A DNA stretch of 55,267 nt. Origin: Parcubacteria group bacterium (lineage in GTDB: Bacteria; Patescibacteriota; Minisyncoccia; Phycocordibacterales; Zambryskibacteraceae). A model generated the notes under the pieces. The model did not search any database and was not told the DNA's origin. It worked only from the letters and a program-made list of their open reading frames with translations. Positions 2,056 to 40,695 of this stretch are shown piece after piece. The stretch spans positions 1 through 55,267 of the forward strand of contig JBKJKY010000003.1 of the NCBI GenBank assembly GCA_046597175.1, in the 5' to 3' direction. Position 1 is the stretch's first letter, and every line of letters starts with the position of its first letter. The translations under genes were made by a program, and so were the position numbers.

Positions 2056-3204
2056 TTAGTAGAGGTCAATGGTTTTTTCTACCATTTGTTTTAGTGAAAA
2101 TTTTTCCTCAACGGTATGTTTAAGTGCTATTCCATACTGCTCTAGCATATCTCTACTTGCAAGCAGTTCCTGGAGCGCGTATTCAATCTGAGATATATTT
2201 CCAGCTTCTACGAGTATTCCGTTTCGTTTGTGTTCGATAGCTTCAGGAATACCACCAACCCGGCTTGCTATTACGGGGAGCGATGCGAGCCCCGCTTCGA
2301 GTGGTGCGTAGGGGAATGCTTCAGTACGAGAGGTGAGGGTGAAGATATCAAAGGCATTAAGGTACTCTGACGCATTTTCTTTGAATCCTACGAGGTGTAC
2401 CTTTTCGCTCAGATTAAGCGTTTGAATAAGTGTTTGAAGATTTTTGCCCTCCTCTCCACCGCCAATAATGACGAGTGCAGTATCAGGTACCGCTTTCACT
2501 GTGTTTGCAAACGCTCGAATAATAAAGTCGAGGCCTTTGTTCTTGTGGAGTTCTGAAATCGTACCAATCCAGAGCGCCTCTTTAAAATTCCCCAAATTAC
2601 TTCGCGCATCAGCTTTTTGTAAAAGTGGAATCGTACCAATGCCGTTATAGATGAGTGTTATTTTCTTGCTTACAAGTGGGAAGCGAGAAATTTGATCCGC
2701 TACTTTCTTTGAAACAGCAATGGTATCGTGGGAAAGTACGATGGTGAGAAAATGGAGGAAGGCAAGGATAATTTTTGAAACAATATTTCTTTTTTCATTA
2801 AACGCCCAGCCGTGCCCGGTAAATATGGCTCTGGTATAGGTGGTGGAGTAGTTCAGTATTGAACGAATATTCATAAAACGAACAGCAAGAGCTCCCAGCC
2901 CACCTGCTTTTGAACTATTGAGGTGAACTACATCAGGGTTTTCATCTTTCAGAATTTTGAGGAAGGCAATGAGTGATCGAATATCAGAAATTACACCGAT
3001 GTCACGCTTCAGACTCTCAATTCGGAGTACTCGAATTCCTTTTTCGATTAGTTTCTTTTCAAGCGTATCACCTTCGCCGAGAACAACGAGTACCTCGAAG
3101 TTATCTTTCGGAAGGTTCGTAGCTAGGTCAAAGACGTATCGTTGGGCGCCTCCAAAGTTACCCTTTGTTATAAAATATAAAATTTTTTTTGTTTTATTCT
3201 GCAT
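2056..3204 (-). CDS. glycosyltransferase family 4 (GT-B fold)
   Basis: 382 aa. C-terminal SRTEAFPYAPLEAGLASLPVIASRVGGIPEAIEHKRNGILVE is typical of the GT4 donor-binding region. The N-terminus KILYFITKGNFGG lies in a duplicated 41-bp segment. Confidence 0.85.
   Translation of the reverse strand: MQNKTKKILYFITKGNFGGAQRYVFDLATNLPKDNFEVLVVLGEGDTLEKKLIEKGIRVLRIESLKRDIGVISDIRSLIAFLKILKDENPDVVHLNSSKAGGLGALAVRFMNIRSILNYSTTYTRAIFTGHGWAFNEKRNIVSKIILAFLHFLTIVLSHDTIAVSKKVADQISRFPLVSKKITLIYNGIGTIPLLQKADARSNLGNFKEALWIGTISELHKNKGLDFIIRAFANTVKAVPDTALVIIGGGEEGKNLQTLIQTLNLSEKVHLVGFKENASEYLNAFDIFTLTSRTEAFPYAPLEAGLASLPVIASRVGGIPEAIEHKRNGILVEAGNISQIEYALQELLASRDMLEQYGIALKHTVEEKFSLKQMVEKTIDLY
3149..3189. repeat. 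41-bp direct repeat, copy 1 (encodes residues 6-19 of the current glycosyltransferase)
   Basis: cctccaaagttaccctttgttataaaatataaaattttttt is identical to 3330-3370. Confidence 0.95.
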
Positions 3205-3239
3205 AGTCTGTTTTTTTGATTGCTACAGGCTTCACGGAT

Positions 3240-3303
3240 ATTTTCTTGCTAGAAAATTCCGCGACCCCACCTCACTCGCCTGCGCTCGCTCCGGTCTTGC
3301 GCC
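3240..3303 (-). repeat. bipartite interspersed repeat, copy A (AT hairpin plus GC-rich module)
   Basis: Hairpin ATTTTCT-tgct-AGAAAAT (3240-3257) next to ccgcgaccccacctcactcgcctgcgctcgctccggtcttgcgcc. The reverse complement aligns at roughly 85% with 13684-13724. Confidence 0.8.
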
Positions 3304-3379
3304 AACGGGTCCCTTCCCGATGGCTCACACCTCCAAAGTTACCCTTTGTTATAAAATATAAAATTTTTTTCTTGTCCAT
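3272..3379 (-). pseudogene. fossil 5' end of the glycosyltransferase gene, displaced by a ~140-bp insertion
   Basis: The minus strand reads ATG GAC AAG AAA AAA ATT ..., giving MDKKKILYFITKGNFGGVSHREGTRWRKTGASAGE*. The first 17 aa match the live gene's N-terminus, then the frame runs into repeat copy A and stops. The ATG sits in a TAATATG junction with the upstream EamA stop. Confidence 0.6.
3330..3370. repeat. 41-bp direct repeat, copy 2
   Basis: Identical to 3149-3189. The two copies are separated by 140 bp that contain repeat copy A. Confidence 0.95.
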
Positions 3380-3380
3380 A

Positions 3381-3803
3381 TTATTTTATTGCAAAGAGAA
3401 TTGCTCCTGAGAGTATGAGAACTGAGCCAAGCCCCGTTTTCCAGGTAATCCCTTCACCGAGGAATAGCGCTGCGAGAATAACTACAAATACAATGCTGAG
3501 TCGATCGAGAGCAGCAACTCCTCCTGCAGGACCATTTTTTAGACTAAAGAAATAAAAGAGCCATGAGGTAGCCCCGGCAATGCCTGAGAGTGCGATGAAA
3601 AGGAAGGTTCTTCCATCAATAGAACTCAGGGTTTTGTATTTTCCGAGTGCAAGGGAAGTGAGTACAAGGAACCCAGCCATAACAACTGAACGAACAGTGG
3701 TCGCTAAGGTACTATCAACATTTTTGAGTCCAATCTTGCCGAAGATAGAGACGAGGGATGCAAAAACTGCAGAAAGTGAAGCGTAGAGTATCCAACTAGG
3801 CAT
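3381..3803 (-). CDS. small EamA/DMT-superfamily membrane transporter
   Basis: 140 aa from MPSWILY. 4-5 TM segments and a single EamA-like repeat (FGKIGLKNVDSTLATTVRS). The longer track ORF (to 3866) overlaps the upstream gene, so the shorter start is preferred. Confidence 0.6.
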   Translation of the reverse strand: MPSWILYASLSAVFASLVSIFGKIGLKNVDSTLATTVRSVVMAGFLVLTSLALGKYKTLSSIDGRTFLFIALSGIAGATSWLFYFFSLKNGPAGGVAALDRLSIVFVVILAALFLGEGITWKTGLGSVLILSGAILFAIK

Positions 3804-4278
3804 GGCGGTTTTTGTGACGCATTCGCATTGGATGGAGGTGCGCCGCGAGCGAGAGTGCGAGTGCAATAATGACTACGTTTTTGATGATGTACTGACCTTC
3901 AAGAGTCGGTACGAGGAATGATTGCCAAGTAATACTTGGAAGTAAGATAAGTGGCATTACTGTTGTAATCATATGGGGAAGGAGGAGGGCAATTGCAACT
4001 CGCTCAAGTCCGGGGATGAGAAATGTAATCCCAATAATCATTTCGTAGATACCAAAAAGGAGAATGAATTGGTCAAAGGTGATGAAGGGGAGTGTTTTCT
4101 CAAGGAGACTTGATACGAGGGGATTAGCTGGGCTCTCACCAAACACTTTCAGTATTCCAAACCAAAAAAATACGATAAAGATTGCAATGTGAGCCATTGG
4201 CAAACTGATTTTTCGGAAGAAGTGAATAATCGAACTGTCAACCGCTTCCATTTCACCTTGTATATTATGAGTATTCAT
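3796..4278 (-). CDS. DoxX/DUF417-like integral membrane protein
   Basis: 160 aa with 4 TM segments. The C-terminal EGQYIIKNVVIIALALSL resembles DoxX-family ends. The family assignment is tentative. Confidence 0.5.
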   Translation of the reverse strand: MNTHNIQGEMEAVDSSIIHFFRKISLPMAHIAIFIVFFWFGILKVFGESPANPLVSSLLEKTLPFITFDQFILLFGIYEMIIGITFLIPGLERVAIALLLPHMITTVMPLILLPSITWQSFLVPTLEGQYIIKNVVIIALALSLAAHLHPMRMRHKNRHA

Positions 4279-4284
4279 TCCTTC

Positions 4285-4290
4285 ATTCTA
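4285..4290 (-). promoter_or_regulatory. -10 hexamer TAGAAT, 6 nt upstream of the ATG at 4278 (leaderless-type promoter)
   Basis: The minus strand reads cgcggTAGAATgaaggaATG. Confidence 0.5.
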
Positions 4291-4293
4291 CCG

Positions 4294-4331
4294 CGTGATT
4301 TTACTCATGGCTAGCAATGAGTAAAATCACG
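4294..4331. promoter_or_regulatory. 38-bp near-perfect palindrome (candidate operator) abutting the -10 box
   Basis: cgtgattttactcat (4294-4308) and atgagtaaaatcacg (4317-4331) are perfect 15-bp inverted arms around ggctagca. Confidence 0.55.
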
Positions 4332-4506
4332 AAAAACGGATATCGAAAGACGAAAATCGAGGAGAACAAAAACTTACTAACTGGCCATGTCGCTCTAGGT
4401 ATACATTCCAATAATATTTGTCGATTTTTGTTATCCGAGTTTCGACCAACCGCACCTCAGTCTGTGGGTTGAAAAAAGCCTGTTTTTCTATAGTATTACC
4501 CTTGTT

Positions 4507-5853
4507 ATGACTATGATGAGCAAAAAAGAGCCATTTATCCTCGTTTTGGGGGATATTATTGCCTTTTACATGGGCCTATGGCTTATGCTCTTCTTGCGAT
4601 ACGCAGAACTTCCCTCAAAGGCTAACCTAACGCTACACCTTGTGCCATTTTCTATTTTGTTCGTGATTTGGTTCGGGGTCTTTTTTATCGCAGGCCTCTA
4701 TGAGAAACACACGCTCCTTATCAAGGAAAAGATTGCAGGAACAATCTTGCGTGCACAGATTACAAATAGCATTCTGGCAGTACTCTTCTTTTACTTCATT
4801 CCATTTTTTGGTATTGCTCCAAAAACAAATCTTTTTCTGACACTCCTAACTTCGTTTGGTTTTGTGATGGTCTGGAGGTTGTTTATATTTGCCGGTTTTG
4901 AGACTAGAACAAAAGAGAAAGCCCTGCTCATTGGTTCTGGCCCTGAGATGGCTGAGCTTGAAATGGAAGTGAACAATAACTCACGCTATGATGTGCAGTT
5001 CGTCTCATCACTTGACGTAAGTAATGCAAGTGCAGATGGTGTGCAAGCGGAGATGCAACAAAAAATATATACCGAAGGCATTTCAGTCATCGTTGCAGAC
5101 TTTCGCGATGAGAAAGTAGAGCCAGTACTACCAACGCTCTATAATCTTATTTTCTCTGATGTTCGGTTTGTTGATATGTATAAGCTGTATGAAGATATCT
5201 TCGATCGCATTCCGCTCTCTCTGGTGCGGTATAACTGGTTCCTCGAACACATAGCTGGATCGGCTGAAAGGGGGTATGATTTTTTGAAACGGACAATGGA
5301 CTTCACCGTCTCACTTCTGCTCGGTGTTGTTTCTCTGTTTTTCTATCCGTTTGTTTACCTCGCAATCAAACTGGAAGATGGCGGCCCAATTTTCTTTACG
5401 CAAGAACGCATTGGCAAAAATAATGAACTCATCGCAGTGAAAAAGTTTCGAAGTTTGGCTGTCCATAATAATCCAAATGGCATCGCTCTGAATCCGTTAC
5501 CGACAAAAGTAGGAGCATTTCTTCGTCGCACCCGAATCGATGAATTACCACAACTCTGGAGTGTTCTTATCGGAGATTTGTCGCTCATCGGTCCACGTCC
5601 CGAAATCCCGGCGCTCGTCGAGGTATATGAAAAAGAAATTCCGTATTACAACGTCAGGCATCTCATCAAACCAGGACTTTCAGGGTGGGCACAGCTCTAT
5701 CAATATGCACCGCCAAAGTTTTCGGCAAAGCTCGATGAAACCCGCATTAAGCTTTCGTATGATTTGTATTACATAAAACATCGCTCACTTGGACTCGATC
5801 TCAAAGTTGCTCTCCGAACTATCAAAACTCTTCTTTCACGGGAGGGAATTTAG
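4507..5853 (+). CDS. polyprenyl-phosphate sugar phosphotransferase (bacterial sugar transferase, WbaP/EpsL-like)
   Basis: 448 aa. N-terminal TM block plus a C-terminal domain with the hallmark DELPQLWSVLIGDLSLIGPRPE. Confidence 0.9.
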   Translation: MTMMSKKEPFILVLGDIIAFYMGLWLMLFLRYAELPSKANLTLHLVPFSILFVIWFGVFFIAGLYEKHTLLIKEKIAGTILRAQITNSILAVLFFYFIPFFGIAPKTNLFLTLLTSFGFVMVWRLFIFAGFETRTKEKALLIGSGPEMAELEMEVNNNSRYDVQFVSSLDVSNASADGVQAEMQQKIYTEGISVIVADFRDEKVEPVLPTLYNLIFSDVRFVDMYKLYEDIFDRIPLSLVRYNWFLEHIAGSAERGYDFLKRTMDFTVSLLLGVVSLFFYPFVYLAIKLEDGGPIFFTQERIGKNNELIAVKKFRSLAVHNNPNGIALNPLPTKVGAFLRRTRIDELPQLWSVLIGDLSLIGPRPEIPALVEVYEKEIPYYNVRHLIKPGLSGWAQLYQYAPPKFSAKLDETRIKLSYDLYYIKHRSLGLDLKVALRTIKTLLSREGI

Positions 5854-5994
5854 ACCCAGTTTTAAGTGGTCAGTGTTAAGTTTTAAGTAAGTTACTTCTC
5901 GCTTGTCTGATAATAGTTTTTGTGGTATTTTGCATTCGAAATCGTTCTTATTTGGCCTGGCATTCCAGGAACACAAAAAAGAGAGAGGTGCATC

Positions 5995-6537
5995 ATGAAT
6001 GCGAATGATTATCGGTTTCTATACACTTTCGCTTGTTTTTGCTCAGACCTCAGAAAGCTTTGCTTTCCTCCAATTGGAAGCGAAGCTTTCATCAGCCCGA
6101 ATCTCGACACTGTCGAAGCAAAAAAAATGGTCGCATACGCTGTAGAACACGATTCCTATCTACATCTCACTGATTTCAGTGTGGGGAAGATGGAAGAATG
6201 GTTACATCTCTGGTGTTCCACCGAAAATGATTCACAAGATCTTGGTCAAGAAGCACACGAATGGGTTGCAAGATGGGCATTTGCAGTCTGTGCACCTTTT
6301 GTTCCGTATCTTGATGCAAGTATCGTTTTGACTGGCTGGGGTTTTCACTCGAGTGAAGAAGAGGTTTTGTATGTCTTCCTCTCTTTACCTGAAGAAGCGG
6401 ATGGATACTCTCAGTCAACTTTGGTAACGAACCGACCAGAGGATTGGCAGGCGTTCCTCCGCGACCCTGTCGGATTCCTGACAAGTGGTAAACCAAAACC
6501 AGTTTTCTTTGGTCCGGACGGCCAGATCAACCTGTAG
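5995..6537 (+). CDS. hypothetical protein
   Basis: ATG at 5995 within the track ORF 5920-6537. Followed by an intrinsic terminator. No recognisable motif. Confidence 0.45.
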   Translation: MNANDYRFLYTFACFCSDLRKLCFPPIGSEAFISPNLDTVEAKKMVAYAVEHDSYLHLTDFSVGKMEEWLHLWCSTENDSQDLGQEAHEWVARWAFAVCAPFVPYLDASIVLTGWGFHSSEEEVLYVFLSLPEEADGYSQSTLVTNRPEDWQAFLRDPVGFLTSGKPKPVFFGPDGQINL

Positions 6538-6552
6538 GCCCAAGTGTTTTAT

Positions 6553-6585
6553 AACCCCTCGCGTATCCGCGAGGGGTTATTTGTT
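6553..6585 (+). terminator. intrinsic terminator
   Basis: aacccctcgcg-tatc-cgcgaggggtt followed by a T-rich tract. Confidence 0.75.
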
Positions 6586-6612
6586 TGATTTTCCTCTTAA
6601 AATCCCTATACT
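6585..6612 (+). promoter_or_regulatory. sigma70-like promoter, leaderless geometry for secD
   Basis: TTGATT, a 16-nt spacer, TATACT, then 6 nt (gttccc) to the ATG at 6619. Confidence 0.55.
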
Positions 6613-6618
6613 GTTCCC

Positions 6619-7941
6619 ATGACTAAATACCGAATTGGAAGCTTTTTCCTCATTATTTGCGGGCTATTATTGGCTTTTTTCCTCAACGCTTCGCTCAAAC
6701 CGAATGCAAAACATCCCTTCAAGCTCGGGCTCGACCTTGTAGGTGGCACTGAACTTATCTACCGGGCAGATCTTTCTCGTATCGATACGCAGGACGTCTC
6801 TACTTCCATGGATGCGCTTCGGGAGGTTATCGAAAGGCGAGTAAACGTCTTTGGTGTATCTGAACCAATTATCCAAGTAGAACAAGCTGGACTTGTATCA
6901 GGGAATACCGATCATAGACTCATTGTTGAGCTTCCTGGTATCAGTAATACCGATGAGGCGATTGCCATGATTGGAAAAACTCCCGTGCTCGAATTTCGCC
7001 TTGAAAAAGAAGGACTTCAAAATTTGAAAGAAGAAGATATCAAGAATCTTTCGATTGATGATATCTATTCTCCTACAGGACTCGATGGAAGACTTCTAAA
7101 AAACGCACAACTTCAGTTTGACTCAACAACGCAAAAGCCGATGGTGGTACTTAACTTCAATGATGAAGGGAAGGCTCTCTTTGCAAAAGTAACGGGTGAA
7201 AATGTTGGACGGACACTTGCTATTTTCCTCGATGGAAAGATGATTCAAGCGCCACGAATTCAAGAATCGATTGATAATGGGACCGCTCGTATCACTGGAG
7301 GCTTCGACGCAAATACCGCAAAAGAAGCAGTAAAACAACTGAACTATGGTGCGCTTCCAGTACCTATCGAGCTCATTAGCCAGCAAACCATTGGTCCATC
7401 ACTCGGACAAGTCGCGCTCCACGCAGGACTCAGGGCTGGTGTTGTAGGATTTATACTACTCTCAATCTTTCTTATCCTCTGGTACCGTCTTCCTGGAATT
7501 GTTGCAACAATTGCGCTCGTGCTCTATGTTCTTATCTCACTTTCACTTTTCCTTATTATTCCGGTGACGCTTACTGCCGCTGGCCTTGCAGGGTTCATCC
7601 TTTCGATTGGTATGGCGGTTGATGCGAACGTGCTTATCTTCGAACGCATGAAAGAAGAGCTCCGCGCAGGAAAAAATCTTCACGATGCAATGCATGAAGG
7701 ATTCCACCGCGCATGGCTTTCGATTCGTGACTCAAACATCTCATCAATTATTACCGCAATTGTGCTCTTCTGGCTTGGAACATCAGCGATAAAAGGATTC
7801 GCACTCACGCTCGGTCTTGGAGTGGCTGTTTCAATGTTTACCGCAATCACTGCATCTCGAACATTCCTTTTCGCACTCCAGTCAAAGACCCTCGGAAAGG
7901 TTGCACGATTCTTATTCGGATCTGGTATTTCTAACGCTTAA
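6619..7941 (+). CDS. secD: protein translocase subunit SecD
   Basis: 440 aa. LGLDLVGGTELIY motif, a periplasmic-type domain and a C-terminal 6-TM block. Confidence 0.9.
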   Translation: MTKYRIGSFFLIICGLLLAFFLNASLKPNAKHPFKLGLDLVGGTELIYRADLSRIDTQDVSTSMDALREVIERRVNVFGVSEPIIQVEQAGLVSGNTDHRLIVELPGISNTDEAIAMIGKTPVLEFRLEKEGLQNLKEEDIKNLSIDDIYSPTGLDGRLLKNAQLQFDSTTQKPMVVLNFNDEGKALFAKVTGENVGRTLAIFLDGKMIQAPRIQESIDNGTARITGGFDANTAKEAVKQLNYGALPVPIELISQQTIGPSLGQVALHAGLRAGVVGFILLSIFLILWYRLPGIVATIALVLYVLISLSLFLIIPVTLTAAGLAGFILSIGMAVDANVLIFERMKEELRAGKNLHDAMHEGFHRAWLSIRDSNISSIITAIVLFWLGTSAIKGFALTLGLGVAVSMFTAITASRTFLFALQSKTLGKVARFLFGSGISNA

Positions 7942-7945
7942 TATT

Positions 7946-8857
7946 ATGCCTATCATCACTCACAGAAAAATTTTCTTCGCTCTCTCAGCAATTCTTATGC
8001 TTGGATCGGTTGTTGCAATATCGGTATTTGGACTCCACTTCAGTTCTGACTTTGTAGGAGGTTCGCTCCTTGAGGTTTCGTACGAAAAAAGTGCTGATGT
8101 TCCAACTCTTGATACTGCAAAGACTGTCCTTGCACCACTCTCGCTTGGCGAATATTCACTTCGTCCATCAGGTGATACGCACCTCGTGCTTCGATCGAAA
8201 GAATTAACCCAAGTGCAAAAAGAAACGGTTGTGAGTGCACTTTCAAGTAACGGAGCAGTACCTACCAAAATTGAACGCTTCAATACGGTTGGTCCAATCG
8301 TTGGAGAGAGTCTCAAGAAGAAGTCGTACATCGCAATTGCGCTCGTTGTGCTTTGTATCATGCTTTTCATTACCTTTGTATTTCGCAAAGTGTCAGAGCC
8401 AGTTGCTTCATGGAAGTTCGGGTTAGCGACAGTAATTGCTCTTGTTCATGATGTGCTTATTCCAACAGGAATATACGTTGTCTACGGACATTACTTTGGA
8501 GCGGAAATTGACTTACTCTTTGTAACAGCGCTCCTCGCGATCCTCGGATACTCAGTGCATGACACAATTGTGGTATTCGACCGAACTCGCGAGAACCTTC
8601 TGCACAATCTCGGAGGACGTTCAAAAGAAACATTTGACGTAACAGTGGGGAAGAGTCTTTCACAAACAATGGCTCGTTCGATCAATACATCACTCACCAT
8701 CTTCATTACCCTCATGGCTCTCTACTTTGTAGGAAGTGATGCAACTCGAAACTTCGCATTCACGCTACTTGTCGGAGTTATTGTGGGAACGTACTCATCA
8801 ATCTGTGTGGCGTCTCCACTCCTCGTGACTCTCGAAAAACTTCAAAAGAAAAACTAA
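7946..8857 (+). CDS. secF: protein translocase subunit SecF
   Basis: ATG at 7946 lies 4 nt after the secD stop; the track's 7817 start overlaps secD. SSDFVGGSLLEV motif and 6 TM segments. Confidence 0.9.
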   Translation: MPIITHRKIFFALSAILMLGSVVAISVFGLHFSSDFVGGSLLEVSYEKSADVPTLDTAKTVLAPLSLGEYSLRPSGDTHLVLRSKELTQVQKETVVSALSSNGAVPTKIERFNTVGPIVGESLKKKSYIAIALVVLCIMLFITFVFRKVSEPVASWKFGLATVIALVHDVLIPTGIYVVYGHYFGAEIDLLFVTALLAILGYSVHDTIVVFDRTRENLLHNLGGRSKETFDVTVGKSLSQTMARSINTSLTIFITLMALYFVGSDATRNFAFTLLVGVIVGTYSSICVASPLLVTLEKLQKKN

Positions 8858-8858
8858 G

Positions 8859-8887
8859 AAAAAAACCGGCTTATGCCGGTTTTTTTA
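8859..8887 (+). terminator. intrinsic terminator
   Basis: A-tract, ccggc-ttat-gccgg, then a T-tract. Confidence 0.75.
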
Positions 8888-8901
8888 TAGAGTATTCGGT
8901 A

Positions 8902-8907
8902 TATAAT
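8902..8907 (+). promoter_or_regulatory. -10 hexamer TATAAT, 6 nt upstream of the ATG at 8914
   Basis: gtaTATAATgactagATG. Confidence 0.5.
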
Positions 8908-8913
8908 GACTAG

Positions 8914-9459
8914 ATGAAGAAAACACTTTCATTCATCGCTGTAGCTGTGTTGCTGGTATTCGGAATGTACTTCCTGATTCATGGAAAGAAAACTGAGTAT
9001 GTAGCTCCGGAGCAAACCCCTTCAATGTTTCAGATTGAGGAGCCTTCTAAGCAATCAATGCCCGCAGGGGTAAAAGGCGAGTTTGGCGATGGAGAAACAC
9101 AAGCTATGCCGAGCCCAAAAGTAACACCGCCAAAAATTATTACTATCACCGGAAATTATTTTTATAGTGAAGATGTAAAGTCGGATTTTGTGGGAAAAAT
9201 TTGTTTTGAGCCAAGTACCGCAACTGCAGGAGTAGGGAAACGATTTTGTTTTGATAATGCTGATGAGGTCTTTGCTATTATTGGTATCACAAAAGGATTC
9301 AGTAATGGGAATACGCAGTGTACACAAACAGGCCCAGCCACAGTAACGGTAAAGAATTACACAAAGCTCACGGGGGATGCGGGCGGATATGACAGTGCAA
9401 CTTTGACCAAGTTTACCGATACCGGTAAGTCATCGTATCTTGCGTGTGGAAAGTATTAA
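8914..9459 (+). CDS. hypothetical membrane-anchored/secreted protein
   Basis: 181 aa. N-terminal hydrophobic anchor (FIAVAVLLVFGMYFLI) and a Cys-containing C-terminal domain. Confidence 0.5.
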   Translation: MKKTLSFIAVAVLLVFGMYFLIHGKKTEYVAPEQTPSMFQIEEPSKQSMPAGVKGEFGDGETQAMPSPKVTPPKIITITGNYFYSEDVKSDFVGKICFEPSTATAGVGKRFCFDNADEVFAIIGITKGFSNGNTQCTQTGPATVTVKNYTKLTGDAGGYDSATLTKFTDTGKSSYLACGKY

Positions 9460-9480
9460 AAGAGGTTATGTACATGGTTG

Positions 9481-9508
9481 TTGCGGGAATAGAAAACTAG
9501 AATATACT
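9481..9508 (+). promoter_or_regulatory. sigma70-like promoter
   Basis: TTGCGG, a 16-nt spacer, TATACT, then 8 nt to the ATG at 9517. Confidence 0.5.
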
Positions 9509-9516
9509 GTATCTAT

Positions 9517-10131
9517 ATGGCAATTGAATCACCGGTATTTGAAGTAAAGGCTGAAAGGGCAAAACGTGAGCCAACACCCCTCGAGGCTAAATCATTTCAT
9601 GAACTTACCGAAAAAGGTGCAGAGCGTGTAGAAATGGTAAAACAAGGTTTTGTAAACTTAAGAGATTCTGTCAAAGGTGGCATATCTCGCTTATGGTCAA
9701 AGGCAAAAGGGGTGGGAGAAACTCTTACGGAAGGAGCTTTCTCACTTCCCGAAGTTATTGCATCTACTCCAGAAATCGCTTCGCACCTCTTTGCAATGAG
9801 CAGACTAAAATTGCAGGATGGATACGAAAGTGTGGGTGATTTTGCAAATGGAAAAATGGCAGAAGCACGCTTTGGTATTGAAAAAACAAAGCTCGGTATC
9901 CTCGATGCTGCGAAAGATAAATACAATTCTATTGAAAATCGTGGTCTCGATGTACTTTCGAATTTTAATAATAGGGTAGCAGACATTAGTAATGGAGTCA
10001 GGGATAGGGTAGACACATATAGGGGTGATATCAATACCGAAAGAAGAGATCAGCAAATCGAAACCCTTAGAGACTTAATTGCAAAAGCGCAGGAGCTTGG
10101 ACTTAATGTGAATGTGCCTGGTATGGCTTAA
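9517..10131 (+). CDS. hypothetical protein (predicted helical)
   Basis: 204-aa ORF in an operon-like array. No recognisable motif. Confidence 0.45.
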   Translation: MAIESPVFEVKAERAKREPTPLEAKSFHELTEKGAERVEMVKQGFVNLRDSVKGGISRLWSKAKGVGETLTEGAFSLPEVIASTPEIASHLFAMSRLKLQDGYESVGDFANGKMAEARFGIEKTKLGILDAAKDKYNSIENRGLDVLSNFNNRVADISNGVRDRVDTYRGDINTERRDQQIETLRDLIAKAQELGLNVNVPGMA

Positions 10132-10135
10132 GAGT

Positions 10136-10456
10136 ATGCAACCTGATATTTCAAAATTTATACAATTCATCAAAGATTCAGACTTGTCTCCTGATGATAA
10201 GTCGTTGGTTGAGTCTCATCTTTCTGACCCAGCAACTTCTATCGAAGTAAAAGAAGCTTTTTTGGTAGATTTTTTCCATACACGAATCTTAGTATTACAA
10301 AAACAAGAAGAAGGCGATTTGAAAAAAATTATTGATGATGGCAATCTTGAAATTGCTAACGCGCAACAAGACACGAATCGTGAGCTCGAGCAATTACAAA
10401 ACGAAGCGCAGCAAGTAACTGCGGATACCGAAAAAGAATTAGAGGCCGTCGTATAA
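10136..10456 (+). CDS. hypothetical acidic coiled-coil-like protein
   Basis: ATG at 10136 lies just after the upstream stop (10129-10131); the track start at 10112 overlaps the previous gene. Confidence 0.45.
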   Translation: MQPDISKFIQFIKDSDLSPDDKSLVESHLSDPATSIEVKEAFLVDFFHTRILVLQKQEEGDLKKIIDDGNLEIANAQQDTNRELEQLQNEAQQVTADTEKELEAVV

Positions 10457-10465
10457 AAAGTAAGC

Positions 10466-10493
10466 AACCCCGGAACGAAGTTCCGGGGTTTGT
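10466..10493 (+). terminator. intrinsic terminator
   Basis: aaccccggaac-gaa-gttccggggtt followed by tgtgtg. Confidence 0.75.
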
Positions 10494-10535
10494 GTGTAAG
10501 GCGAGACGTCCGTCTGTTGTTTTTAGTAAAAAAAT

Positions 10536-10899
10536 CGGGTCCACGAAGCGAAGCTTCGTGGACCCGAAAGTCTGGTCTCTATTCCCTTGAACACTCAAGG
10601 TGTTCTCTTTGGTCACCCAGACCGAAGTTCACACTCAGGTGTAGTGTTGCGATCCTTGCTCAGGGGATCACTACGAAAGTGGTCAAACTCGCGGAGCCAG
10701 TGTCTGTGCTGGCTTTTGCGACACAGGATTCACGCAGTGCGTAAGGGGTCCCTGTCCACACAGGTTTCCTTATCACACCAAGCTTCACCAAGGAGAAAGA
10801 GACCATGAATACGTTCTGCTACTTATAGTGCGCCTGCTGAGAAGGGATGTCAATGGAGTATATTCTAGGCCGTGGATTACGTGTTTTCGGGCCTATTTT
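10536..10899 (+). ncRNA. candidate structured RNA, unclassified (weak RNase P-like motifs)
   Basis: No credible ORF. 14-bp hairpin at 10536-10566 followed by GAAAGTC. Long-range pairing of GGTCTCT (10574-80) with AGAGACC (10798-804). Several local hairpins, one with a GAAA tetraloop. Ends in a taggcc...ggccta-tttt hairpin at 10866-10899. Confidence 0.35.
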
Positions 10900-10939
10900 G
10901 AAGCCTAATCTGAGTATCTAAAAAAAGCCCATAAAACGC

Positions 10940-10967
10940 TTGACTCCTGCCTTCACATCTATATAAT
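10940..10967 (+). promoter_or_regulatory. rRNA promoter (consensus-like sigma70)
   Basis: TTGACT (10940-45), a 16-nt spacer, TATAAT (10962-67), about 295 nt upstream of the 16S 5' end. Confidence 0.7.
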
Positions 10968-11011
10968 ACAGGCCTGCTTCTAAGGTTTTCTTAGGAGCCG
11001 TTTTGAAAGAG

Positions 11012-11022
11012 TACTTTGACAA
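11012..11022 (+). promoter_or_regulatory. boxA-like antitermination element in the rRNA leader
   Basis: TACTTTGACAA compared with the E. coli boxA core GCTCTTTAACAA. Followed by a 9-bp leader hairpin at 11047-11075. Confidence 0.35.
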
Positions 11023-11261
11023 CTTGTTACATAAAAAATTTGAGAACGCCTAAGGTTTTAAAGACACCTTAGGCTAGCAAGTCTCAAGAATTCTAATAAT
11101 GTGATTCCTTTCCGCTACATGCACCTTCGGTGGTGAACGTACAAGCAATACGGTGTAGTTGGAAGAAGTGAGTTAGAAATCAAATTCTTAACCGGATCAA
11201 ACCGAAGTCTAATATTCTTTGTTTTGTTCCGTTCCAAATGAAATGTTCAAACACATCATTT

Positions 11262-12724
<1,463 letters not shown>

Positions 12725-12906
12725 GAAAAACCCTTCTTTAAATTTATTTAAAGATTGAGTGCGTCGATATTGTGAATCTCGATCGAGTTCGCAATGGATG
12801 ATGATTATGAATCCAAAAACTAATTTGACTCATGGAAAGACATGCGCAGGTAATGCTCGAAAGGGTAATACTGAAGGGAACGGAGCAAAATAAAGAATAG
12901 TAGATC

Positions 12907-12936
12907 AAAACCACCCCGCTCACGCGGGGTGGTTTT
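12907..12936 (+). terminator. intrinsic (bidirectional-type) terminator about 190 nt after the 16S
   Basis: caaaa-ccaccccgc-tcac-gcggggtgg-tttt. Confidence 0.75.
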
Positions 12937-12963
12937 GCGTATGTAGGGTGTGAATAGTCACTA

Positions 12964-12992
12964 TTGACATAGTAGTATACTGTATGATAATA
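12964..12992 (+). promoter_or_regulatory. sigma70-like promoter
   Basis: TTGACA (12964-69), a 16-17 nt spacer, then GATAAT/ATAATA (12986-92). Confidence 0.6.
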
Positions 12993-12997
12993 TATAC

Positions 12998-13439
12998 ACC
13001 GTAACACTCACGAATACTCGGAGGAGAGATGAAGCGTCATTTGCTTTTGTCGATCGCGGGGTTGAAGCGTGTGGTGTGTCTGCTCTTTGTATCAACGGGT
13101 ATCCTGGAGGTGAACGTCCGGTATGGTTCACACCGTGCGGGATTCCCAATTTCGCTCGAACCGAAGAAGGTAGAGCTGTGCTGGTTGATGCGCCCTGGCG
13201 ATGCAGTTTGCGCGCTGGTGCTCTCAGCCCAGCTCTACTTCATTCTTTCAATTGTCTTCGTAAACGCTGGTCACTCAAACGATTTCTTTGATTGGCCGGT
13301 CAAAATGATGGTGCAGTTGCAGGGCCAGCTTCGAGGTTGGCGGTAGGGTAGTTGAGCGGAGTTAGCGAAGTGAGTGGTATCAGCAGTTTGCTGGGCCAGA
13401 GCTGGGGTCGGACAGAACATGTCCGGCCCCTTTCTATTT
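12998..13439 (+). ncRNA. promoter-to-terminator unit of unknown nature: GC-enriched structured RNA, or an atypical 105-aa ORF (13029-13346)
   Basis: Bounded by the 12964 promoter and the 13404 terminator. GC content and third-codon-position G/C bias differ from neighbouring genes. Long-range stem TAGAGCTG (13171-78) with CAGCTCTA (13230-37), plus many local hairpins. Confidence 0.3.
13404..13439 (+). terminator. intrinsic terminator
   Basis: ggggtcggac-agaacat-gtccggcccc (10 bp) followed by tttctattt. Confidence 0.75.
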
Positions 13440-13450
13440 GAAATGTTTTT

Positions 13451-13459
13451 TGGTATATT
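13451..13459 (+). promoter_or_regulatory. extended -10 promoter (TGgTATATT) upstream of the tRNA region
   Basis: ttttTGgTATATTctc. No clear -35 element. Confidence 0.4.
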
Positions 13460-13545
13460 CTCAGACTAGTCGCTTGTGACTAGTGGCCAGAAACTAGTAG
13501 AACGCGCGTAACTGTTTTGGTAGGTATAAAGGTAGAAAAAGTAAT

Positions 13546-13569
13546 GCGCGTGTAGCTCAGCTGATAGAG
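13546..13569 (+). pseudogene. tRNA-Ile 5' fragment (acceptor strand plus D-arm only)
   Basis: gcgcgtgtagctcagctgatagag matches 13826-13849 of the intact tRNA at 23 of 24 positions. It continues into a non-tRNA hairpin (gaccggg-atgaga-cccggtc). Confidence 0.7.
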
Positions 13570-13592
13570 TGAGACCGGGATGAGACCCGGTC

Positions 13593-13653
13593 GCAAGGTC
13601 GGAATCTGTGGAGGCAGATGAGACTGGGTCGCAGAAAATTTCAACAGAAATTT
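13593..13653 (+). repeat. bipartite interspersed repeat, copy D (most diverged)
   Basis: gcaaggtcggaatctgtggaggcagatgagactgggtcgcag followed by hairpin AAATTTC-aaca-GAAATTT. Confidence 0.6.
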
Positions 13654-13683
13654 ATTTGTGACAGAGAGTGCTGGGATACTTGT

Positions 13684-13745
13684 GCAAGGCCGGACCGAGC
13701 GAAGGCGAGGGAGGTGGGGTCGCGACTTTTCTCAGCAGAGAAAAA
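13684..13745 (+). repeat. bipartite interspersed repeat, copy B
   Basis: gcaaggccggaccgagcgaaggcgagggaggtggggtcgcg followed by hairpin TTTTCTC-agca-GAGAAAA. Confidence 0.8.
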
Positions 13746-13782
13746 GTTGTGATAGCGACTGACTTCTTATAGGGGCGGTTCG

Positions 13783-13936
13783 TTTTTTAGATTCTTTTCG
13801 ATAATTTCATTGTAATTTGTTTAGTGCGCGTGTAGCTCAGCTGGTAGAGCAATCGACTGATACTCGGTAGGTCCCAGGTTCGAACCCTGGCACGCGCACT
13901 AAGCACGGTACAAATTATCGAAAAGAATCTAAAAGA
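13783..13936. repeat. 25-bp inverted repeat pair (13783-13807 and 13912-13936) enclosing tRNA-Ile
   Basis: agattcttttcgataattt and aaattatcgaaaagaatct are a perfect 19-bp pair, extended by T/A pairs. The acceptor stem is also extended by 5 bp (ttagt/actaa). Confidence 0.85.
13826..13898 (+). tRNA. tRNA-Ile (anticodon GAU)
   Basis: Manual cloverleaf: acceptor GCGCGTG/CACGCGC, D-arm GCTC-AGCTGGTA-GAGC, anticodon arm ATCGA-CTGATAC-TCGGT, T-arm CCAGG-TTCGAAC-CCTGG, discriminator A. No CCA is encoded. Confidence 0.9.
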
Positions 13937-14056
13937 TTTTGTTGAAGCTATATTTTCCCGTCTGTATCACGGATAAAACTTTGCTAAGTTTTTCCGCGAT
14001 TCTTACAGAATCTGTACACCTTTCACATTTTGATTACAAAACGTTCAAGGTCTTGC

Positions 14057-14118
14057 AAAAACTCAAGGTGTTCGTTTTTTCACCCACCTCGGCTCGTCAG
14101 CCTCCGGTCTTGCAGAGC
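14057..14118 (-). repeat. bipartite interspersed repeat, copy C (partial GC module)
   Basis: Hairpin AAAAAC...GTTTTT followed by cacccacctcggctcgtcagcctccggtcttgcagagc. It shares ccacctc...ctccggtcttgc with copy A. Confidence 0.6.
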
Positions 14119-14136
14119 TCCAGGTATTCGCTCTTC

Positions 14137-14164
14137 ACTCGGTAGGTCCCAGGTTCGAACCCTG
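14137..14164 (+). pseudogene. tRNA-Ile 3' fragment (anticodon 3' stem, variable loop, T-arm)
   Basis: actcggtaggtcccaggttcgaaccctg is 28 of 28 identical to 13862-13889. The acceptor 3' strand is not conserved. Followed by a long hairpin and a second T-arm-like cagggttcgaagcctg (14190-14205). Confidence 0.75.
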
Positions 14165-14352
14165 AACGTAAACCGTGGGACGGTCTACGTTCAGGGTTCG
14201 AAGCCTGTTTGACTATTTTTCTAAGCTTTAAAAAAGCGACAGAAAAATCCAAACAGGGTACTGATTCTGTAAGAATCGAACTGACCAGATAAAGCTCTCT
14301 CCCAGCCCTCCAATTTCTTGCTATACTATGGACACACTAATAATTATTATTT

Positions 14353-15033
14353 ATGAAAACAGATACATTCGTGGCGAAAGATGCTATTAAATTTGGTTGG
14401 CAGAAAACGAAAGAGCATTTCTGGTTCCTCTTGTTGGTTATGGCTGGGAGCACGGTTATTTCCGGTATTTTGAAATCCATGAGCCACGGAAATGGTGATA
14501 TGGGATTTGCTGGAGTCATTTCTTTTCTATTTCAAGTTGTGGTTTCAGTGGGAACGATAGCAATCGCACTCAAGATTGTTCGAGGAAAAGAATTTGGATT
14601 TTCTGATTTCCGAGTTTCGTTTGAAGTATTTTGGAAGTACATTGTTACTTCTATTCTTCTCGGACTTCTCGTGGGAGCAGGAATGATCCTTCTCATTATT
14701 CCAGGGATATATTTTGCCATTCGATACGGACTTGCTACATATCTTGTGGTCGATAAGCATCTCGGTCCACTTGAGGCCATGAAGCGAAGCGCTCTCATTA
14801 CCGGCGGTAACAAATGGAAACTTTTTGAGTTCCTTCTTATTGTTATTGGAGTAAATATTCTCGGTGCACTCGCTCTCTTAGTTGGACTTGTTGTTTCAAT
14901 TCCTACTACATTTATTGCCGGAGTGTGGGTCTATAACGAACTTCTCAAGAAATCTGAAATGGATGGTGGGGAGTCAGCTCCAGTCTCTGTTCCCGTAGAA
15001 CTTGCAACATCTCCTATCGCCACAGCGGTATAA
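14353..15033 (+). CDS. hypothetical polytopic membrane protein
   Basis: 226 aa with 5-6 TM segments. No family is recognisable by eye. Confidence 0.55.
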   Translation: MKTDTFVAKDAIKFGWQKTKEHFWFLLLVMAGSTVISGILKSMSHGNGDMGFAGVISFLFQVVVSVGTIAIALKIVRGKEFGFSDFRVSFEVFWKYIVTSILLGLLVGAGMILLIIPGIYFAIRYGLATYLVVDKHLGPLEAMKRSALITGGNKWKLFEFLLIVIGVNILGALALLVGLVVSIPTTFIAGVWVYNELLKKSEMDGGESAPVSVPVELATSPIATAV

Positions 15034-16052: not shown

Positions 16053-16125
16053 GCTATCCGAACTTTTATTGGGGCACTCTCATAAAAGAAGTATTTTTGT
16101 TGTATAATGAACTTTGAAATTCTTC

Positions 16126-40247: not shown

Positions 40248-40267
40248 TGAATTAATATTAGTCGAAT

Positions 40268-40288
40268 ACGAAATACGAAATACGAAAT
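40268..40288 (+). repeat. tandem heptamer (ACGAAAT x3) containing the right copy of ACGAAATACGAAA
   Basis: acgaaatacgaaatacgaaat. Confidence 0.8.
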
Positions 40289-40407
40289 TTAAAATACAAA
40301 CAAAGGTACATGCAGATTTTAAATTTTCTTATTCTTACACTAATGAGCGAAAAGTATTTCCATGAGACTGCGCAGATGGAAAATCGTATAAGCATCTACA
40401 CTAATGA

Positions 40408-40503
40408 GCGAGAATTATTTTTCAAAGACTTGTGAGTTTGTCGAAACGAGCACGAGGAATTTTTTAGCAAAAAAATATCCGTGCTTTGAAAAATAATTCT
40501 CGC
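40408..40503. repeat. perfect 20-bp inverted repeat separated by 56 nt
   Basis: gcgagaattatttttcaaag (40408-27) and ctttgaaaaataattctcgc (40484-503). The left arm overlaps a 15-bp direct repeat, tacactaatgagcga (40336 and 40396). Confidence 0.85.
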
Positions 40504-40695
40504 GAATACTTATCCACACATTTTTGCAAAAAAATATTGTATGCACATCGCATATGCATCATAATAATTGCAAGGTCGAATAATTATTTTCTGTGTCGCG
40601 TGTCGTGATGCAAAAATAAATTATTGAGAACATTTAAAAATAATTTTCAAAATATTTTTCTAACGGTGTTCGCATCGCAAGAAAGAAAAAATACT

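Follow-up and report, generated by a model that had tools for sequence, protein, structure and literature searches.

A ~91-nt structured repeat family at conserved G-rich sites in tRNA, rRNA and enzyme genes of Patescibacteria

Bacteria of the candidate phyla radiation (CPR), or Patescibacteria, have tiny genomes that are thought to carry few repeats. Here we describe a family of structured repeats met in a 55,267-nt contig of a Parcubacteria group bacterium (JBKJKY010000003.1, assembly GCA_046597175.1; the whole stretch is called the window hereafter), where its copies lie around a tRNA-Ile gene, inside a GT4 glycosyltransferase gene and upstream of secA. The element carries no gene of its own, and comparison of related genomes shows that its units have been gained at specific conserved G-rich sites, being present or absent at orthologous positions.

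Repeat units at the tRNA-Ile, GT4 and secA loci

The 16S rRNA gene of the window (11261-12724) is followed, 0.8 kb further on, by an array that reads from 5' to 3' as a partial tRNA-Ile, repeat unit D, unit B in tandem, a putative diverged tRNA remnant, the intact tRNA-Ile gene and unit C in antisense (Table 1). Together with unit A in the GT4 gene, these are the four related repeats that a first-pass annotation of the same letters had recognised, and their intervals and orientations were recovered by a core pattern, BLAST and a covariance model built from relatives. The 40-nt core pattern GCAAGRYCGGA-N8-AGGC-N4-GAG-N3-GGGTCGC (at most three mismatches) matches only A, D and B in the window. 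Identity between A and B reaches 82% over 61 nt (E = 1e-10), and that between A and D 65% over 88 nt. With three of the four copies lying within 600 nt, chance or a purely local duplication around tRNA-Ile might be invoked; this explanation is refuted and retains practically no probability, since the core pattern found 0 matches across 100 dinucleotide-preserving shuffles of the window, copy A lies 10 kb from the others, and many copies with covariation occur elsewhere.

Several limits drawn in the first-pass annotation had to be moved. The unit had been given as ~60 nt; it measures ~91 nt, runs from TGAG to GTGA(C) and comprises three helices (P1, the P2 arm and P3), the 5' hairpin P1 having been overlooked. 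The 7-bp A/T hairpin described there does exist, but forms only the tip of the 15-bp P3, which has a conserved base, GUCGC/GUGAC, and a bulged A. In copy B, P1 is degenerate and P2 and P3 are intact. Copy C had been placed at 14057-14118, an interval that holds only its P1-P2 half (14141 to 14076 on the minus strand, 23.2 bits); a second match (14051 to 13959, 38.3 bits) comprises an AT-rich P1-like hairpin and the true P3, GCGGAAAAACUUAGCAAAGUUUUAUCCGUGA, at 13959-13995, ~77 nt apart from the P1-P2 half. Because the two parts fall in separate model matches, copy C is interrupted or composite; its simple-P2 variant, GGCUGACGAGCC, recurs in a repeat on a contig designated L005. The family in the window is also larger than the four members counted before, as a fifth, decayed copy (40405-40492) retains TGTGAG and the P3 hairpin GGAAUUUUUUAGCAAAAAAAUAUCCGUG, has lost P2 and matches copy A by BLAST at 90% over 31 nt.

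Table 1. Coordinates of the repeat units and their targets in the window
Feature	Position	Strand	Remarks
Copy A	3232..3327	minus	complete (P1, P2 arm, P3); model match 3224-3331, 93.2 bits; core pattern 3261-3300
Copy D	13570..13661	plus	complete; model match 13566-13669, 95 bits; core pattern 13593-13632
Copy B	about 13663..13753	plus	tandem after D; model match 13672-13760, 79.5 bits, P1 skipped; core pattern 13684-13723
Copy C	13959..14141	minus	antisense to tRNA-Ile; two model matches, 23.2 + 38.3 bits
Fifth copy, decayed	40405..40492	plus	model match 24 bits, E = 1.7e-4
Left copy of 41-nt target duplication	3330..3370	minus	codons 4-17 of ancestral GT4 gene; old ATG 3377
Right copy of 41-nt target duplication	3149..3189	minus	inside functional GT4 gene
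3' tail of insertion A, 42 nt	3190..3231	minus	supplies new GT4 start codon, ATG at 3204; open reading frame 2056-3204
Extra partial tRNA-Ile copy, positions -4 to 24	13542..13569	plus	26/28 identical to 13822-13849; flush with 5' end of D
Putative diverged rest of extra tRNA-Ile copy	13754..13784	plus	anticodon-arm-like CGACTGAC, T-arm-like GGGGCGGTTCG
Intact tRNA-Ile(GAT), target gene	13826..13899	plus	ARAGORN; Rfam tRNA 71.2 bits
Extra partial tRNA-Ile copy, positions 37-64	14137..14164	plus	28/28 identical to 13862-13889

The GT4 locus provides the clearest record of an insertion. Copy A lies between perfect direct repeats of 41 nt (41/41), and on the minus strand ATGGACAAG precedes the upstream repeat, the encoded MDKKKILYFITKGNFGG being a normal N-terminus of a GT4 glycosyltransferase. 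The minus-strand order is then GGAGG, the element, the 42-nt tail with the new ATG, the repeat again and the rest of the GT4 gene. We compared this locus with those of its closest homologues. In L053 and L054, whose GT4 proteins are 79% and 76% identical to that of the window, the site is empty and the gene abuts an upstream EamA gene; in L056 (63%) the site is likewise empty, with a 19-nt gap to the upstream open reading frame (ORF). The empty site of L053, ...TAATATGGACAAGAAAAAAATTTTATATTTTATAACAAAAGGTAATTTCGGTGG|CGCCCAACG, equals the window's old start plus a single copy of the repeat, and the tail of insertion A is absent from both L053 and L054. Since these two show the ancestral arrangement, the 181 nt at 3190-3370 are an insertion, and the earlier suggestion that an insertion had remodelled this glycosyltransferase gene is borne out.

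Filled sites are found in L055 (62% identity; a decayed copy of 56 bits with a diverged left duplicate) and in L040 (57%), and in L024 a unit occupies the same GT4 GG codons in the opposite orientation. In at least four loci (the window, L040, L055 and L024), the GT4 insertion follows GNFGG or SNWGG, and in the window and L040 the old reading frame stops inside P2. Exact-sequence look-ups of three window proteins returned no match, probably owing to the choice of start codon.

At the tRNA-Ile locus, the elements lie inside truncated tRNA copies, and the partial target duplications found there had, like the 5' hairpin, escaped the first-pass annotation. On the strand of copy C, the piece at 14137-14164 directly adjoins the 5' end of that copy. 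The stretch 13754-13784, which we infer, reading by eye, to be a remnant of the extra tRNA-Ile copy, aligns weakly to tRNA positions 29-57.

Several further features surround these repeats. The intact tRNA-Ile tops a long stem formed by 13785-13807 with 13912-13934 (23 bp, perfect), which extends to 13785-13832 / 13891-13934 (48 nt, 83% complementarity); an equivalent stem of different sequence surrounds the tRNA-Ile of L165, which points to a conserved processing stem such as RNase III cleaves. At 14154-14202, the T-arm fragment of tRNA-Ile is duplicated in inverted form and gives a strong hairpin (23-nt arms, 96% complementary, 3-nt loop), and similar inverted T-arm pieces also follow the element in L009, L092 and L161. 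No 23S rRNA is present within the 55-kb window, which does hold 16S rRNA and tRNA-Ile, and a 105-amino-acid ORF (13029-13346) in the 0.8-kb spacer after the 16S rRNA gene has no Pfam match. About 2 kb downstream of the tRNA-Ile locus, a 678-amino-acid ORF (16114-18150) gives weak matches to VirD4/TraG/TrwB-like P-loop proteins (type IV secretion coupling). The region 40250-40620, upstream of secA (40908-43409), is a repeat-rich intergenic stretch with tandem CGAAATA units and two ~33-nt direct repeats at about 40336 and 40398; a stem of ~20 bp (about 40407-40428 with 40484-40503) encloses the decayed fifth copy, and near 40570 there is a further GCAAGGTCG...GTCGCG...GTGA-like stretch.

Fold, covariation and distribution

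The unit begins with P1, a hairpin of free sequence, which is followed by the invariant linker GCAAG. A 3-bp helix (RYC/GRY) then closes an arm that holds invariant GGA...GAG and the hairpin P2, and a GGG linker leads to P3, a 15-bp hairpin whose invariant base GUCGC/GUGAC includes a G.U pair and the bulged A. Outside the stems, the invariant or nearly invariant bases are the 5' UGAG, GCAAG, CGGA...GAG around P2 (able to form tandem G.A pairs), GGGGUCGC, the bulged A and GUGAC. The closing helix itself covaries, occurring as GCC/GGC, GUC/GAC and ACC/GGU.

Compensatory changes, which the first-pass annotation had proposed to look for, proved abundant in two sequence sets. RNAalifold, applied to 32 units, predicts P1, the 3-bp helix with the P2 arm, and P3, with compensatory changes in 19/26 pairs. 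An explicit structure on these 32 units (set 1) and 110 distinct metagenome units fitted to the model (set 2) were then compared with controls in which the 3' partners were slid, and with 500 shuffles. Paired cells amounted to 92.3% in set 1 (35-45% when slid) and 94.7% in set 2 (31-48%), and the covariation score to 0.608 (best slid 0.165) and 0.627 (best slid 0.103), respectively. Changes on both sides were seen in 22/29 and 27/29 pairs, and the observed score was reached by 0/500 shuffles in either set.

The fold is strand-specific. The G.U pair at the base of P3 is present in 104/110 metagenome sequences, and by minimum free energy the given strand has an advantage of 8-10 kcal/mol over its complement, both of which identify it as the folding strand; copy A reaches -36.1 kcal/mol with all three helices reproduced (opposite strand, -28.3), and copy D -39.0 kcal/mol (z = -5.9). 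A strand-specific fold in turn points to single-stranded RNA, less likely to single-stranded DNA, and counts against a site bound as duplex. A double-stranded protein-binding site, one of the candidates first proposed, is thus unlikely, also because the helix arms covary freely in sequence. As for another of these candidates, a small-RNA family, the modelled fold supports the structured-RNA part, with its covariation, its near-invariant G.U pair and the one specific strand that would fold.

Variants of the architecture occur. In a subfamily comprising L010, L025, L027, L041 and L051, a second, independent P3-type hairpin follows the unit, such as GCGGAAAUUUUCAGCAGAAAAUUAUCCGUGAC; in L042 a P3-type hairpin is nested in P1, and in L024 and L029 the unit has a ~60-nt 5' extension with its own hairpin. 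P3-like hairpins occasionally stand alone as repeats (L010, L041, L051). Likeness to K-turns, group II domains D5/D6 and C/D boxes was judged by eye only, and none fits the defining geometry.

Beyond the window, the exact pattern was scanned in one GTDB genome for each of 185,579 species. This gave 52 loci, 36 of them from Patescibacteria and all 36 with the full flanking architecture, in genomes of Saccharibacteria, Kaiserbacteria, Paceibacterota, Nomurabacteria, Minisyncoccia and Parcubacteria. The other 16 matches fall in high-GC genomes outside the CPR and are taken as chance, because the flanking architecture is absent. A slightly relaxed pattern found at least 120 loci in metagenomes, and the metagenome-derived figures given here rest on these matches listed. 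The search for further copies in related CPR genomes, also proposed at the outset, was therefore productive, and within the collections searched the family is found only in Patescibacteria. In the 36 genome loci the covariance model (R1) counts 51 copies, as many as five of which share a 2.4-kb contig, and in the first 100 metagenome loci it counts 119; the copies that the model found beyond those selected by the pattern score from 93 down to 20 bits and range from intact to badly decayed, a spread as expected of a repeat that turns over. On L005 (the 2378-bp contig JBAXIZ010000118.1), five copies or fragments lie around a tRNA-Val gene, among them a repeat, over 45 nt long, that belongs to the simple-P2 subfamily.

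The first-pass annotation did not recognise the module as any known RNA, and no Rfam 15 model matches the repeats. A gathering-threshold scan of the window with its 4227 models returned 16S rRNA and tRNA only, and at E <= 10 the intervals 12700-14400 and 3100-3420 gave, over the repeats, only weak chance matches of microRNA or small nucleolar RNA type. The relaxed pattern had no match in the viral contigs of IMG/VR, so that a phage origin was set aside, and full-text searches of the literature yielded no description of such an element. The family is thus apparently both widespread and undescribed.

Target choice and insertion architecture

A total of 137 unique units was surveyed. Insertion occurs after G-rich ends (..GGG| or ..GAG|) within highly conserved sequences, and among the 134 units with flanks the left-flank positions -3, -2 and -1 are G in 79%, 71% and 94%. 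The target sites include the D arm (GGTAGAG|) and T loop (GGGG|TT|CGA) of tRNAs, 5S rRNA on either strand, and N-terminal motifs of GT4 and GH1 genes. Direct duplication of the flanking target was found in 45 of the 124 units testable for it (19-62 nt, 76-100% identical). The left duplicate lies within a few nucleotides of the 5' end of the element in 27/45 and is flush with it in 22, and the right duplicate starts 0-223 nt after the 3' end (0-82 nt in 42/45).

A tRNA gene lies within 250 nt of 47 units (34%), in the same orientation in 41 cases and in the opposite one in 6. Where a tRNA follows the unit, the left flank repeats the 5' part of this tRNA, beginning 3-28 nt upstream of the gene and ending at position 24 (Ile, Ala, Asn, Phe) or at the T loop GGGG| (Glu, Gln). 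The tRNA resumes 1-2 nt beyond the unit (CA or TT replaced) and runs for 12-18 nt, after which come filler and the intact tRNA. More generally, at the loci read in detail an additional, truncated copy of the target harbours the unit. This copy reaches from the gene boundary to the insertion point and continues for only ~12-26 nt past the element, followed by 0-200 nt of filler and the intact gene. With the tRNA upstream (L045, L090) the arrangement is the mirror image: the intact gene, filler, ~15-20 nt of target, the unit and the remainder of the gene to its end. The junctions show microhomology, with a G-run on the left and C on the right, and 1-2 target bases are lost at the detailed tRNA junctions.

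The choice of highly conserved motifs, of the kind used by homing introns and inteins, could suggest that the unit is the degenerate relic of a small intron, self-splicing or spliced by proteins, that homed into tRNA, rRNA and protein genes. Its ends, with the 5' GUGAG, a bulged A placed 8 nt before the 3' terminus and AC as the last two bases, might also loosely resemble those of group II or group III introns. However, in-silico excision with eight filler variants (0-3 bases added back) produced a tRNA across the junction in 0/137 units, so that a functional intron is ruled out; in L045, the outer arrangement resembling a tRNA proved to be the mirror-image partial copy, and a tRNA intron was accordingly rejected. 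The interrupted copy is moreover truncated, with an intact, unit-free copy adjacent in every detailed tRNA, 5S and GT4 locus, no Rfam intron model matches, and ~91 nt are far too few for a group I or II catalytic core. An intron relic is largely refuted and must be considered highly improbable.

The same architecture recurs in 5S rRNA, in sense in L059 and L172 and in antisense in L002, L102 and L112. In L102, the extra antisense copy of 5S rRNA, which lies upstream of the element, is split by a palindromic insert of 43 nt, CCGCCCGAATCGCAAGATGAGCTTGCGAATCGTTGCGGGCGGG, that may represent a second kind of small hairpin insertion. The filler contains inverted copies of nearby target in L092, L161, L009 and L024, and in the window at the hairpin 14154-14202. 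In GH1 beta-glucosidase genes of three genomes, the unit follows F(L/Y)WG codons; the old N-terminal frame crosses the whole element in L001 and L004, and in L044 ends within the 3' strand of P3. At each of the three loci, the frame-ending TGA overlaps the ATG of the restored gene (ATGA), an arrangement that suggests translational coupling.

These contexts raise the possibility that the unit is a cis-acting RNA beneficial to the host, co-transcribed with tRNAs, rRNA and some mRNAs, its mobility being secondary or ancient; candidates would be a new self-cleaving ribozyme, or a module for processing or insulation that separates an upstream junk transcript from the downstream gene. Small ribozymes likewise combine invariant nucleotides at the junctions with stems that covary freely, the pattern seen here across Saccharibacteria and the Paceibacteria-type groups (Kaiserbacteria, Nomurabacteria, Paceibacterota), and two copies at one site in different genomes (L092 and L161) keep their fold by compensatory changes. 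Copies within a genome are old and divergent, different genomes repeatedly have units located after rplL and before particular tRNAs, and the ATGA overlap of the frame through the unit with the new start codon at the three GH1 loci would also suit such a role, as would the 41:6 excess of units that read in the same sense as the tRNA gene beside them. With respect to nearby protein-coding ORFs the two orientations are, by contrast, about equally frequent (50:46 and 53:41); the excess at tRNA genes is therefore probably due to the way the G-rich target motifs are oriented or to the preferential survival of expressed copies. A function in cis is further opposed by the empty sites in the closest relatives, the decayed copies (L055, window copy C and the copy at 40405) and the antisense insertions in GT4, 5S rRNA and tRNA-Ile. 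Every detailed tRNA, 5S and GT4 locus has a broken extra target copy rather than a clean leader position, no Rfam ribozyme family matches, and with only 36 CPR loci from the strict scan of one genome per species the element does not look universal in the CPR. We regard this explanation, which is the main rival and is not exclusive of a mobile element, as unlikely yet deserving of serious attention.

Mode of propagation and relation to known elements

The occurrence of empty and filled sites, flanking target duplications and many copies in related genomes upholds the suggestion of a mobile or recombinogenic element made in the first-pass annotation, and the empty sites that it had proposed to seek were found at GT4 in L053, L054 and L056. 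We favour, with confidence evenly divided, a non-autonomous, structure-dependent mobile element of ~91 nt that inserts by what we infer to be copy-in through template switching. A polymerase copying the target, either a reverse transcriptase or one of repair or replication, would switch by G-rich microhomology onto the folded element as template, copy it end to end, return to the target and soon re-initiate upstream, which would leave a partial duplication of the target. This proposal rests on the precise ends, the junction microhomology with its 1-2 nt loss, the short resumption of the target and the local direct and inverted duplications. RNA-type pairs make the RNA of the element the most likely template. 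In essential genes, only events that leave an intact copy would survive, and the conserved fold may reflect the needs of a trans-acting machinery, or of template stability or processing.

Several observations weigh against this proposal. Around 64% of the units lack a detectable duplication, and no mobilising enzyme was found in the loci or window ORFs scanned. Adenine is not enriched in the tails (31% A and 30% T; 34% A and 33% T in the last 15 nt) and 5'-truncated copies are not typical, so that two hallmarks of classical target-primed retroposition are missing. Copies within a genome are no more alike than those of different genomes (medians 0.57-0.64 versus 0.61-0.63), and L092 and L161, genomes with a copy at one and the same tRNA site, differ there in several compensatory base pairs; long-term selection on the fold in place, and hence a role for the host or in cis, would account for this no less well than repeated site-specific insertion.

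Regarding the enzyme, no reverse transcriptase or transposase recurs in the ORF clusters of ~150 loci (up to ~14 kb) or appears among the Pfam-scanned window ORFs, which are ordinary CPR housekeeping and envelope genes. The clusters consist of syntenic host genes, and the sole recurrent mobility gene encodes a large serine recombinase. These genes overlap tRNA 3' ends and have no fixed relation to the unit; as they track tRNA genes and not the element, they were rejected as the linked enzyme. They combine the domains Resolvase, Recombinase and Zn_ribbon_recom (L049, 78-1604; L105, 9953-11542; L116, 3794-5371; also L154 and L064), and their 3' ends overlap tRNA genes on the opposite strand. They are probably the integrases of tRNA-targeting integrative elements in CPR, unrelated to the repeat.

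Insertion could alternatively be due to an unlinked transposase that recognises single-stranded DNA hairpins and moves, in trans, a derivative of a DNA transposon akin to miniature inverted-repeat transposable elements (MITEs), palindrome-associated transposable elements (PATEs) or repetitive extragenic palindromic (REP) sequences; the enzyme could be of HUH/Y1 type, or of DDE type with long variable target duplications as in the IS1634 group. Defined ends, both orientations at one site, variable duplications of 19-62 nt and the P3-like hairpins that also occur alone as repeats (L010, L041, L051) are compatible with such a transposon, and a fold of single-stranded DNA would also explain the covariation. 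However, there are no terminal inverted repeats, the TGAG and GTGAC ends not being reverse complements (134 units), and the duplication is not simple, as the target runs 12-26 nt past the element in the left copy, which in L075 is not contiguous with the native upstream sequence. Junction microhomology with loss of 1-2 nt, the RNA-type character of the tandem G.A pairs, GNNG loops and near-invariant G.U, and the failure to find a transposase near any of the ~150 loci also speak against it, and we consider this origin quite unlikely.

Other modes of propagation were considered and set aside. Poly(A)-primed retroposition is contradicted by tails that are not A-rich, and concerted evolution or recent bursts within genomes by the equal identity of copies within and between genomes. 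A plain target-site duplication from a staggered cut does not account for the 12-26 nt of target that continue past the element in the left copy, nor for L075, in which the left copy does not adjoin the native upstream sequence. A chimeric target transcript as intermediate, with duplication from the transcription start, is weakened by the same architecture in antisense to 5S rRNA, tRNA-Ile and GT4.

Among known systems, the unit would seem to work most like a short interspersed nuclear element (SINE) or a processed retro-copy, and to look most like a small ribozyme-type motif. With SINEs and processed retro-copies of the non-LTR (non-long-terminal-repeat) kind, including U6/L1-type template-switch chimeras, it shares being short, non-coding, derived from or dependent on a folded RNA, and full-length with defined ends; the target duplications of variable length (here 19-62 nt, 45/124) and the microhomology at the 5' junction are likewise SINE-like, and enrichment beside tRNA genes recalls the TRE elements of Dictyostelium. 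In contrast to SINEs, it lacks an A-rich tail, no partner reverse transcriptase was found in the loci or window ORFs scanned, its duplication is not a plain target-site duplication but has the target continuing past the element in the left copy, and its host is bacterial. To our knowledge, no SINE-like retroposon has been described in bacteria.

MITEs, REP sequences with their bacterial interspersed mosaic elements (BIMEs), and PATEs (Correia, RUP, REP with its associated tyrosine transposase RAYT, IS200/IS605 derivatives) are equally small, multi-copy, non-autonomous, hairpin-forming and co-transcribable with their neighbours. The element differs from MITEs in having neither terminal inverted repeats nor a short, fixed, abutting target-site duplication, and from MITEs, REPs and PATEs as a group in inserting inside conserved genes and not only between them, in a core conserved across CPR classes and in its RNA-type non-canonical pairs. 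The P3 hairpin is REP-like in size and sometimes occurs alone, whereas the full unit has three helices and lies inside genes. No RAYT/Y1, TnpA or TnpB gene was present in the recurrent ORF clusters of the loci or among the scanned window ORFs. Compared with the PATEs of IS200/IS605, there is a preference for a G-rich 5' target but, unlike in those, frequent partial target duplication. IS1634-group elements share variable duplications of tens of base pairs; they measure 1.5-2 kb, encode a transposase and have inverted-repeat ends, whereas the repeat has neither an ORF nor inverted ends.

With small self-cleaving ribozymes (hammerhead, twister and the ribozymes resembling that of hepatitis delta virus at retroelement 5' ends), the unit has in common three helices, invariant junctions and covarying stems, as well as many copies per genome in varied gene contexts; in contrast to these, it has no Rfam ribozyme match and is larger than most. 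Homing introns and inteins resemble it in the recurrent, independent occupation of the same conserved site and in empty and filled alleles among close relatives; unlike them, it is not removable, and function is kept by a duplicated intact gene copy.

We tentatively raise, as a possibility that we hold to be rather doubtful, that the unit is the template of a bacterial retroposon-like system, a ~91-nt folded RNA, possibly of a new ribozyme class that defines its own ends, copied by template switching into G-rich sites of highly transcribed conserved genes. That the system is categorically new, either as a retroposon-like system of bacteria or as a new class of ribozyme, may be entertained just as tentatively.

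An element that is conserved, abundant and dependent on its structure would give the CPR, a large part of bacterial diversity, a genome parasite or RNA module of a new type, since it repeatedly enters genes for tRNA, 5S rRNA and conserved enzymes and alters the 5' ends of these genes. For annotation, it makes sense of tRNA pieces, doubled gene starts and novel start codons that are otherwise hard to explain in CPR genomes, for which the covariance model can be used at once, and the sharply defined RNA motif is a candidate for tests of catalysis or protein binding, and for Rfam. If the RNA-templated route holds true, the family would offer a natural bacterial system for template-switch insertion. 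Should it indeed be a retroposon, it would be, as far as we know, the first SINE-like element described in bacteria, and would bring with it a new insertion signature, that of an element embedded in a truncated duplicate of its target.

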